This document shows positions 41,604 to 43,388 of a DNA stretch of 64,000 nucleotides, one piece after another; the first letter of the stretch is position 1; the number at the start of each line of letters is the position of its first letter. A program made the position numbers and the translations under genes. The stretch is from NCBI RefSeq assembly GCF_053078305.1, contig NZ_CP166879.1; one strand, written 5' to 3'. The notes below the pieces were generated by a model. The model worked only from the letters and a program-made list of their open reading frames with translations, did not search any database and was not told the origin of the DNA.

Positions 41604-43388
41604 ATGAATACTGTAAAGTTGTCTTTACTGGCTGTCGTTGTTGCTACCGCAGTAAGTCCATCTGCGTTTGCGGGTGATACTGTTGAGGCGGCAGCGACAG
41701 AATTAGCGGCAATCCAGCCAGGAATGTCGCAAGTGGAAATTGATCAGAAAATTGGTCGATTTTTAGAAAGGACAGGAAATAGCGCAGCCGCACAAAATTA
41801 TCTGATTGCGCATGATTACCAGACAACGACGCCTCAGGAAAATACAACTGCTTCTCCCGTACAGCCCGCCAGTACGCTGAACCCGATAACCAATCAAGCG
41901 CAGACCGTCCGCGACAACGGGCAGGACACCGCCATTCAGGACGCGCAACATGCCGCCAACTGGGCGTCGCAAAAAGCTGATGATGCGCACCATGCCATTA
42001 TGGTGGCGCAGACGGATATTGATGCCAATAAAGCCGCCATCACCGACACCCGCAATGATGTCTCCGCAGTGCAGTCAGACGTCACCAACATAAAAGCCGA
42101 TGTCGCACATGCTCAGTCAACGGCTGACCATGCCAACGCTAACGCCAACACCGCTCTGATGAACGGCGTCAAACTTTCCGGTGCTGTGACAGAAAACAAA
42201 AACAATATCGAACAGAACCGCAGCGATATTGCTGACCAGCAGAAACGGCTGGCATCAAACGAGCACAAACAGACCGTCCGCGACAACGAGCAGGACACCG
42301 CCATTCAGGACGCACAACATGCCGCCAACTGGGCTTCACTGAAAGCTGATGACGCGCAGCACGCCATCACGGTGGCGCAGACGGATATTGATGCCAATAA
42401 AGCCGCCATCGCCGACACCCGTAATGATGTCTCCGCAGTGCAGTCAGACGTCACCAACATAAAAGCCGATGTCACACATGCCCAGTCAACGGCTGACCAT
42501 GCTAACGCTAACGCCAACACCGCTCTGATTAACGGCGTCAAACTTTCCGGTGCTGTGACAGAAAACAAAAATAATATCGAACAGAACCGCAGCGATATTG
42601 CTGACCAACAGCAACAACTCGACGAAACCCGGAAAACCGTTGCCGCCACCGGGGATGTGCAGACTGCCGCCCGATATCAGAGCATGATTGACGCCAGACA
42701 GACAGCCGCTGCCAATGCGCAACAGGAACAAGCGGACACCCAGCAGCAACAAATGGACGATCAGCAGAAACAAATCGACGCGACGCAAAAAACGGTTTCC
42801 GCACTTGGCGATGCCCAGACCAACGCACATTATCAAGAGATGGTTAACGCCGGACTGAGAGCACAAAATGATGCGAATGCGCGTACTGCAGCAGAACAAA
42901 AACAAAAAATAGATACTCTGGCGACTAACCAGGCAACGCAACAGCATATCGATAGTGTGCAGTACGGGGAACAAATTCAGCGTCTGGCGCAAGACTCAAC
43001 GCAAACGCATGAACAAATTGACAGCCTGACACAAGACGTAACCCAAACGCATCAGCAGTTAAGCAACACGCAAAAACGAGTAGCGGATAATAGCCAACAG
43101 ATTACTACGCTCAATAACCATTTCAGTTCGCTGAAAAACGAAGTTGAGGATAATCGTAAAGAAGCCAATGCGGGAACTGCATCTGCCATCGCTATCGCCT
43201 CACAACCACAGGTTAAAACCGGTGACGTGATGATGGTGTCAGCGGGAGCGGGAACCTTCAACGGTGAATCTGCGGTGTCTGTAGGAACATCTTTTAATGC
43301 CGGAACGCATACCGTGATTAAAGCCGGTGTCTCTGCGGATACACAATCTGATTTCGGCGCGGGTGTCGGCGTGGGATATTCGTTCTAA
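41604..43388 (+). CDS. Trimeric-autotransporter-like adhesin (signal peptide, coiled-coil stalk, YadA-type C-terminal anchor)
   Basis: ATG at 41604 gives a signal peptide (MNTVKLSLLAVVVATAVSPSAFA); long Q/A/D-rich heptad-like stalk; C-terminal 70 aa (AGTASAIAIASQPQ...GAGVGVGYSF) matches the YadA-like 4-strand anchor pattern and ends in an aromatic residue. Confidence 0.72.
   Translation: MNTVKLSLLAVVVATAVSPSAFAGDTVEAAATELAAIQPGMSQVEIDQKIGRFLERTGNSAAAQNYLIAHDYQTTTPQENTTASPVQPASTLNPITNQAQTVRDNGQDTAIQDAQHAANWASQKADDAHHAIMVAQTDIDANKAAITDTRNDVSAVQSDVTNIKADVAHAQSTADHANANANTALMNGVKLSGAVTENKNNIEQNRSDIADQQKRLASNEHKQTVRDNEQDTAIQDAQHAANWASLKADDAQHAITVAQTDIDANKAAIADTRNDVSAVQSDVTNIKADVTHAQSTADHANANANTALINGVKLSGAVTENKNNIEQNRSDIADQQQQLDETRKTVAATGDVQTAARYQSMIDARQTAAANAQQEQADTQQQQMDDQQKQIDATQKTVSALGDAQTNAHYQEMVNAGLRAQNDANARTAAEQKQKIDTLATNQATQQHIDSVQYGEQIQRLAQDSTQTHEQIDSLTQDVTQTHQQLSNTQKRVADNSQQITTLNNHFSSLKNEVEDNRKEANAGTASAIAIASQPQVKTGDVMMVSAGAGTFNGESAVSVGTSFNAGTHTVIKAGVSADTQSDFGAGVGVGYSF
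41901..42638 (+). repeat. Near-identical 369 bp tandem duplication (2 copies) within the adhesin stalk
   Basis: Unit 1 starts at 41901 and unit 2 at 42270 (cagaccgtccgcgacaacg...); the translated 123 aa units differ at only a few positions. Confidence 0.85.

Follow-up and report, generated by a model that had tools for sequence, protein, structure and literature searches.

The stretch of DNA analysed here, in the following called the window, comprises 64,000 nucleotides of an Escherichia coli chromosome (NCBI RefSeq assembly GCF_053078305.1, contig NZ_CP166879.1) and carries, in the segment between ybbJ and cueR that is O-island 29 (OI-29) of O157:H7, the gene of a predicted trimeric autotransporter in which a stalk-encoding unit of 369 bp occurs twice in tandem. 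The genes of this region follow each other in the order fetAB, qmcA, ybbJ, a gene for a 120-aa protein on the minus strand, the autotransporter gene, a gene for a 140-aa lipoprotein, a 67-aa open reading frame and cueR, beyond which lie a type I secretion system and then a giant adhesin. The autotransporter gene (41604..43388, plus strand, as are all its parts) is an allele of the OI-29 z0639 family with two stalk units. It encodes 594 aa from an ATG, or 600 aa if an alternative upstream TTG at 41586 serves as start, and in near-identical genomes the RefSeq label of the product is "YadA-like family protein". The intergenic region upstream of the gene has a G+C content of 33%, and a scan for promoters and terminators gave nothing above shuffled expectation.

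Read by inspection, the translation begins with a predicted Sec signal peptide, MNTVKLSLLAVVVATAVSPSAFA, followed by GD (41604..41672), which has a lysine-containing n-region, a hydrophobic core and an A-x-A-like site and is conserved across all alleles, that of O157 included. The N-terminal passenger tip (41673..41900) consists of a conserved helical part (aa 25-69) and a linker rich in Pro, Thr and Gln (aa 70-99). Then come the two units, followed by the remaining stalk (42639..43205), which is built of degenerate repeats of about 38 aa with KTVxxxGDxQT hinge motifs and is 76% identical to the O157 allele. The protein ends with a YadA-like membrane anchor (43206..43385, aa 535-594) that matches Pfam PF03895 YadA_anchor with E=4.7e-11 over the whole model (1-60/60) and for which phmmer found the anchor structures of AtaA, Hia and an adhesin (9vnj, 2gr7 and 3emo). 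Since the signal peptide is combined with a long coiled-coil stalk and, at the C-terminal end, with a YadA_anchor, the product can be assigned to the trimeric autotransporters, and it is, as far as predicted from these features, a small, head-less member with a segmented coiled-coil stalk. Head, neck and connector domains (YadA head, Trp-ring, GIN, neck, HANS, FGG, DALL) gave no Pfam match at E<=10; such domains are common among trimeric autotransporters, yet they do not define the family. When the 123-aa unit alone was compared with the PDB, there were only non-significant matches to trimeric viral and phage coiled coils, and no connector type could be assigned, while NCBIfam gave only spurious coiled-coil matches of the SMC/Rad50 kind, far under the cut-offs. 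The distal stalk contains in addition short in-frame tandem repeats of 21 nt and 42 nt (Tandem Repeats Finder rows 42723-42780 and 42969-43052).

The 369-bp period was found by Tandem Repeats Finder at 41901-42615 (1.9 copies, 94% matches, no indels, score 1290), and direct comparison of 41901-42269 with 42270-42638 gave 335 of 369 identical bases (90.8%), which leaves 34 sites that differ. A sequence-only reading of this DNA had reported that a 123-aa unit in an autotransporter stalk is duplicated in tandem and in frame. Its coordinates and its period are correct, and the description agrees with the YadA_anchor, the homology to Hia and AtaA and the heptads. When it called the two copies nearly identical it slightly overstated a repeat that is nevertheless far beyond chance: 15 of the 123 amino acids differ, 8 of them within the final 9 residues, and while the first 340 nt have only 19 differences (94.4% identity, 5.6% divergence), the last ~27 nt are essentially unrelated and encode KRLASNEHK in unit 1 and QQLDETRKT in unit 2. 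The array has 738 bp and begins in frame 0 at codon 100, if the ATG at 41604 is taken as the first codon. Unit 1, the divergent copy, is located at 41901..42269 (aa 100-222) and unit 2, the terminal copy, at 42270..42638 (aa 223-345). The end of unit 1 (42243..42269, AAACGGCTGGCATCAAACGAGCACAAA, KRLASNEHK) is a junction-specific segment that only ends non-terminal units. Between codons 1-113 of the two copies, the number of synonymous substitutions per synonymous site (dS) is 0.18 and the ratio of nonsynonymous to synonymous substitutions (dN/dS) 0.15, and this low ratio argues that both copies are translated and constrained. The same two-copy allele was found in the 30 best-matching independent complete E. 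coli genomes, with 99.6-99.8% identity over 1803 bp in one piece.

By simple scoring of a and d positions, one continuous heptad phase runs through each unit, phase 5 in unit 1 and phase 2 in unit 2. The length of 123 residues is 16x7+11, with 123 mod 7 being 4, and is not a multiple of the heptad; therefore the phase slips by four residues around LASNEHK-QTVRDNEQDTAI, the sequence of the inter-unit boundary being LASNEHK-QTVRDNGQDTAI. A low-confidence AlphaFold2 model of the monomer (predicted local distance difference test score 58, predicted TM-score 0.22) has helices at the tip at 25-35, 43-56 and 61-69, a disordered part at 75-105, and long helices at 100-223, 233-349, 352-400 and 404-532. 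The predicted breaks between the latter, at aa 224-232 (the unit boundary), 350-351 and 401-403, coincide with hinge motifs that were classed as Gly-containing (TVRDNEQDT, KTVAATGDVQT, KTVSALGDAQT). The duplication had also been said to lengthen the stalk in register, and this is right for the reading frame, which is kept, but not for the coiled coil, as the heptad phase shifts from 5 to 2 at a Gly-containing hinge where the modelled helix is broken. Each unit would form one continuous heptad-repeat segment that is bounded by a Gly-containing hinge motif, TVRDNGQDT / KTVAATGDVQT. It behaves as a rod plus hinge, and the duplication adds a whole cassette and not one uninterrupted extension of the coiled coil. 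At ~1.5 Å per residue, an added unit would contribute about 18 nm more trimeric coiled coil and one hinge, and it would move the conserved N-terminal tip outward from the outer membrane, with anchor and tip left untouched.

That the copy number should vary between isolates had been predicted as well, and for the gene family this is borne out, with 0-4 units read and probably up to five. Among the loci that were read with open frames, there is one unit in L002 and L008, two in the window and in L007, three in L005, and four in L001 and L003. L006 (three units) and L009 (two units) have an extra in-frame deletion of 42 nt in unit 1, and L004 is a frameshifted three-unit pseudogene. Gene lengths are 1416, 1785, 2154 and 2523 nt, nine of the ten loci have zero in-frame stops, and open reading frames of 477, 600 and 846 aa occur at the same locus. 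The lengths of database proteins rise in corresponding steps (459-477, 577-600, 702-717, 825 and 962 aa), the 962-aa protein having five modules that result from a 122-aa duplication and three extra 123-aa units. Members from E. marmotae and cryptic-clade Escherichia in the protein database are all single-copy, and the O157 allele (338 aa) has no unit at all, with the homologous tip and distal stalk being present. Within one allele, units differ at 3-19 of 340 nt, corresponding to ~94-99% identity.

In a survey of 5426 complete E. coli genomes, the unit was present in 350 (~6%), with 610 matching places and no more than 5 in any one genome; at each of the nine complete loci that were checked against the read sequence, there were as many BLAST places as units. 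A 96-nt probe across the inter-unit junction matched in full in 214 of the 350 unit-bearing genomes (61%), which thus have two or more units, and the ~39% without the junction have one unit or only a duplication of the 122-aa type. By an estimate that is based on summary counts and a 60-row sample and not on a parse of each genome, about half of the 350 genomes have two units, about a tenth have three, and a few have four or five. Inside the lineage of the window allele no copy-number variation was seen, as 30 of 30 listed genomes are two-copy.

Further length changes are found in the same stalk. The 42-nt deletion in unit 1 of L006 and L009 corresponds to 14 aa or two heptads, lies between 15-nt direct repeats (GACGCGCAGCACGCC, DAQHA ... 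DAQHA) and looks like a slippage-type event; the corresponding regions of the window are 41940-41981 and 42309-42350, where the direct repeats are imperfect. An independent 122-aa duplication with different breakpoints occurs in the database proteins P0010 and P0039, both duplication types are combined in P0005, P0002 and P0001, and E. marmotae-like proteins (P0062, P0068, P0069) have a duplication of 38 aa. This stalk has a general tendency to change in length while the frame is kept.

The history of the array can be approached from its junctions. In all eight multi-copy alleles that were read, the non-terminal units end with QQK(R/L)LASNE(H/Q)K, whereas the terminal unit ends with QQQQLDETRK(T/I), and terminal or single units overall with LDET(R/Q)K(T/I). 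The alleles that share the junction belong to lineages that are ~4% apart. A search in single-copy genes on both strands revealed no source for the 18-27-nt junction segment (best local score 20, as compared to 17.7 on average and 22 at the 95th percentile for shuffled sequence), and the array is therefore more than a plain copy of sequence as it exists today. The junction that is shared by all multi-copy alleles read argues for one old origin, and a comparison of the sequences thus points to an array architecture that arose once, with LASNE(H/Q)K as a shared derived character.

Since then, the units have been reshuffled. Unit variants are a patchwork of polymorphisms that are shared among arrays, and the same unit body can be found at different array positions (only 2 nt differ between unit 1 of L001 and unit 2 of L005) or with different ends (0 nt differ between the internal unit 2 of L003 and the terminal unit 2 of L007). 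The one-copy allele of L002 and the four-copy allele of L001 have near-identical flanks, with 2/297 and 6/750 differences. Such a patchwork, moved unit bodies, and like flanks with unlike counts are the signature of unequal crossing-over and gene conversion. The array thus arose, as the junction indicates, a single time, and its unit variants have since been reshuffled, probably by unequal homologous recombination and gene conversion between units, to give the one to four units that were read and the presumably about five in some genomes, with a related class having none. The best explanation, to which we assign a probability of roughly 0.8, is that the window carries an old and reshuffled two-unit array of an alpha-helical rod module in the stalk of a head-less trimeric autotransporter. 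The window allele would in this case be an old two-copy form, and the 5.6% divergence of its copies would have built up under purifying selection. No identical run between its two copies is longer than 51 nt, as compared to 111-275 nt in other, more homogeneous arrays, and this would make further unequal exchange rare. Because of this short run and the 30 of 30 listed two-copy genomes, the form in the window is probably comparatively stable.

The window allele is a mosaic, with its 5' end being nearest to L008 and its 3' end nearest to the 96% lineage: the N-terminal 297 nt have 7 differences from L008 and 12-14 from the 96% lineage, whereas the C-terminal 750 nt have 47 differences from L008 and 16-20 from the 96% lineage. 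It is therefore quite conceivable, although short of an even chance, that the divergence of the copies reflects recombination and not age, unit 1 having been imported together with the 5' end into an already duplicated array, so that the two copies would be allelic homeologues brought side by side. The affinities of the two ends are in line with such an import, and the units agree with it insofar as unit 1 has a few bases of the L008 type and unit 2 is similar to those at the terminal position in the 96% lineage. Among the units of other alleles, the terminal ones are the closest to unit 2, with 7-9 nt that differ in L003, L004, L005 and L006. However, unit 1 is still 28 nt away from the L008 unit, no sampled donor matches, and it ends with a junction of the multi-copy type, so that a donor would also have needed an array. 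Such an import refines the explanation by an old, reshuffled array and does not replace it.

An improbable alternative is a recent, simple tandem duplication that is specific for the strain or lineage, the copies being alike because little time has passed, which is how the sequence-only reading had dated the repeat. The 94% similarity found by Tandem Repeats Finder, the perfect 369-bp period and the lack of indels would fit a recent event, but the dating is not supported. With 19 of 340 nt and a dS of 0.18, the copies differ by more than do most of the flanking genes between strains (qmcA, ybbJ and cueR are mostly 1-3% different, with a maximum of 4.4%), and the junction is common to all eight multi-copy alleles, among them ~4% diverged ones, and cannot be derived from single-copy sequence. 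Unit 1 is about as distant from unit 2 as it is from the units of 9 other strains, where all full-length units sampled differ from it at 15-20 of 340 nt, the lineage of the window is two-copy in 30 of 30 listed genomes, and the differences between the copies are reproduced in at least 30 genomes, which speaks against sequencing errors.

A conflict of a different kind arises from the only experimental paper on the locus, in which Yang et al. 2018 (PMC5826968) described O157 GmrA (z0639) as a DNA-binding activator of fliA. In that study, binding to the fliA promoter was found by electrophoretic mobility shift assay and by chromatin immunoprecipitation with quantitative PCR, deletion mutants of O157 had a motility defect, and deletions of gmrA orthologues in seven further E. 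coli strains caused motility and fliC defects (PMC5826968). GmrA is still listed as a regulator in a 2024 review. The arms of the published lambda-Red deletion of z0639 match without mismatch the 39 bases that adjoin either end of the 338-aa YadA-family coding sequence in O157 (L011 4587-5603), and since they flank this sequence exactly, the published GmrA is the O157 allele of the autotransporter gene, namely the one with zero units. The O157 gene shares with the window gene the locus and the neighbours (the z0640 homologue, the lipoprotein z0638, cueR and the type I secretion system), a homologous signal peptide and tip, and the last 255 aa, which are 76% identical and include the anchor; it differs by its length of 338 aa, by the lack of the 123-aa unit, and by having entered the literature as a transcription factor, an identity for which its sequence features give no support.

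If the product were nevertheless a cytoplasmic transcription activator, the repeat would lengthen the coiled coil of a regulator. The promoter-binding and motility data for the O157 allele and the motility data for the seven further strains (PMC5826968) favour this, but the product of the deleted coding sequence begins with a signal peptide and matches YadA_anchor over its full length (E=2.6e-11), and the NCBI pipeline names the product a YadA family autotransporter adhesin. There is no significant DNA-binding domain in the O157 product, the sole Pfam match with such a name being the coiled-coil TMF_DNA_bd with a non-significant E=0.16; we guess that this is the domain in Figure S3B of PMC5826968. 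That the product is such an activator and not a surface fibre is thus very unlikely. The idea that a single unit was wrongly expanded during assembly, for which nothing speaks except the general difficulty of assembling repeats, can practically be dismissed, since the copies differ at 34 sites, the identical two-copy structure is present in at least 30 independent complete genomes, and alleles with one, three and four copies exist with open frames.

Several points nonetheless weigh against an old, reshuffled array in an autotransporter stalk. The paper on GmrA is at odds with it, surface exposure, trimerisation and adhesion of the product are predicted from sequence, and the structural support comes from a low-confidence monomer model. 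Furthermore, the census is a count of BLAST places with sequence checks at nine loci, and a lateral spread of the junction by recombination could mimic a single origin.

Stalk-length variation in trimeric autotransporters is already established, as in Cha and BadA, and this E. coli case is ordinary in kind. The repeats of Cha, which comes from a Haemophilus cryptic genospecies, are short according to what Sheets and St Geme reportedly found in 2011, with about 28 aa, and are said to vary spontaneously within a strain, whereas the E. coli gene has a 123-aa unit, the copies are 1-6% diverged, and variation occurs between lineages and not inside that of the window. In E. coli itself, the plasmid-borne trimeric autotransporter Saa of Shiga toxin-producing strains, which Paton and colleagues are said to have described in 2001, reportedly has size variants that are attributed to the number of a short, 37-aa repeat; Saa belongs to a different sequence family. 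According to a review, the number of tandem repeats in Cha alters how far its distal head is exposed and how adhesive it is (PMC9704523), and the likeness to the present case consists in a trimeric autotransporter with a variable number of tandem peptide repeats. BadA of Bartonella henselae likewise is a trimeric autotransporter with an isolate-variable repetitive stalk array, in which the neck/stalk array has been found in long-read genomes to differ between isolates by recombination (Thibau et al. 2022, PMC8859334). BadA is very large, however, with neck-and-stalk repeats, a YadA-like head and flanking pseudogenes as donors, whereas the E. coli protein is small and has no recognisable head or neck domains and no nearby pseudogene donors. 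A search of the literature found no paper that describes the stalk-repeat variation of this E. coli gene.

The closest comparison in terms of repeat size is that with the periscope proteins, in which long (>50 aa), highly similar tandem repeats form a rod and the number of repeats, which differs from strain to strain, sets the projection of the tip (PMC9704523). The 123-aa units with their 94-99% identity within an allele, and their number of one to four as read and probably up to five, are like this. The periscope class, however, is made up of monomeric rods of independently folding domains and excludes trimeric autotransporters (PMC9704523), whereas the E. coli stalk has heptad coiled-coil units that require three chains, a trimer being implied by the anchor type. 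By analogy, the stalk would have a length-tuning function. We tentatively suggest, as an idea that may well turn out to be wrong, that the OI-29 family are head-less trimeric autotransporters in which the number of rod-plus-hinge cassettes (0 to about 5) is adjusted by unequal recombination, and which would thereby be a trimeric coiled-coil counterpart of the periscope proteins.

The annotation of this family has its own problems. In RefSeq, the annotation pipeline PGAP has labelled most alleles as a ~350-aa protein that starts at an internal ATG in the last unit, though the full reading frame is open (L001 4439-5488, L003 3947-4996, L005 3578-4627, L006 2939-3988, L007 3209-4258, L008 2840-3889), and in most genomes the junction probe falls in unannotated DNA (feature "none"). 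Every unit also has an open reading frame on its opposite strand, as at 42305-42649 (minus strand) in the window and at 3298-4404 (minus strand) in L001, and in the four-unit allele three of these have 122 aa plus stop. They were rejected as genes, since their length is that of precisely one repeat and A strongly exceeds T on the sense strand, and they are read as a by-product of the codon composition of the sense strand (A-over-T skew +0.3 to +0.5).

Among the neighbours, the divergently transcribed gene of the 120-aa protein (40875..41237, minus strand) is the homologue of z0640 and is flanked exactly by the z0640 primer arms. Its product had no confident match in Pfam, NCBIfam or the PDB, and there is a very weak resemblance to MqsA-type helix-turn-helix proteins (E=0.12). 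Downstream of the autotransporter gene follows the gene of the predicted 140-aa lipoprotein (43474..43896, plus strand, signal MMNSSIKSFSLLAVILLAGC), which is flanked by the z0638 primer arms, is the homologue of z0638 and is labelled "lipoprotein" in O157; nothing significant was found for it in Pfam, NCBIfam or the PDB, and a helper role, like that of SadB towards SadA in Salmonella, can only be guessed at by analogy. The last island gene before cueR encodes a hydrophobic protein of 67 aa (43893..44096, plus strand), overlaps the end of the lipoprotein gene and is labelled hypothetical in all loci read. All three genes are co-inherited with every autotransporter allele that was read.

The region 44504-63981 (minus strand) contains an HlyD-family adaptor, a type I secretion ABC permease/ATPase and an open reading frame of 5379 aa. 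The counterpart of the latter is the "BapA-related adhesin SiiEA", which is a frameshifted pseudogene in O157 and is frameshifted also in enteroaggregative E. coli 042; as the frame in the window is open to near its end, it may be an intact gene or extend past the window. The flanks of the island are variable (L003 1-1104, L005 222-1570, L008 5005-5701): in strain VCSW5, a recombinase gene and a truncated qmcA adjoin the island, in ECA64 there is an IS1397 between ybbJ and the 120-aa gene, and WP3-W18-CRE-03 has lost the type I secretion locus, so that cueR is followed by ybaT.

Length-variable stalk repeats of adhesins are a known bacterial way to alter surface exposure and antigenicity, and the gene described here is a further, uncharacterised example from E. 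coli, whose alleles form a clean series from 0 to 4 units as read and presumably about five at most. The short RefSeq models hide both the repeats and the signal peptide from gene-based surveys. As the sequence is that of a predicted secreted outer-membrane fibre, the claim that GmrA is a regulator deserves re-examination. If the family are indeed length-adjusted autotransporters, the motility phenotype that was reported would have arisen indirectly, through an effect on the envelope or the surface, and the length of the stalk would set the reach of the tip relative to the capsule, the O-antigen or the neighbouring giant adhesin of the SiiEA type.

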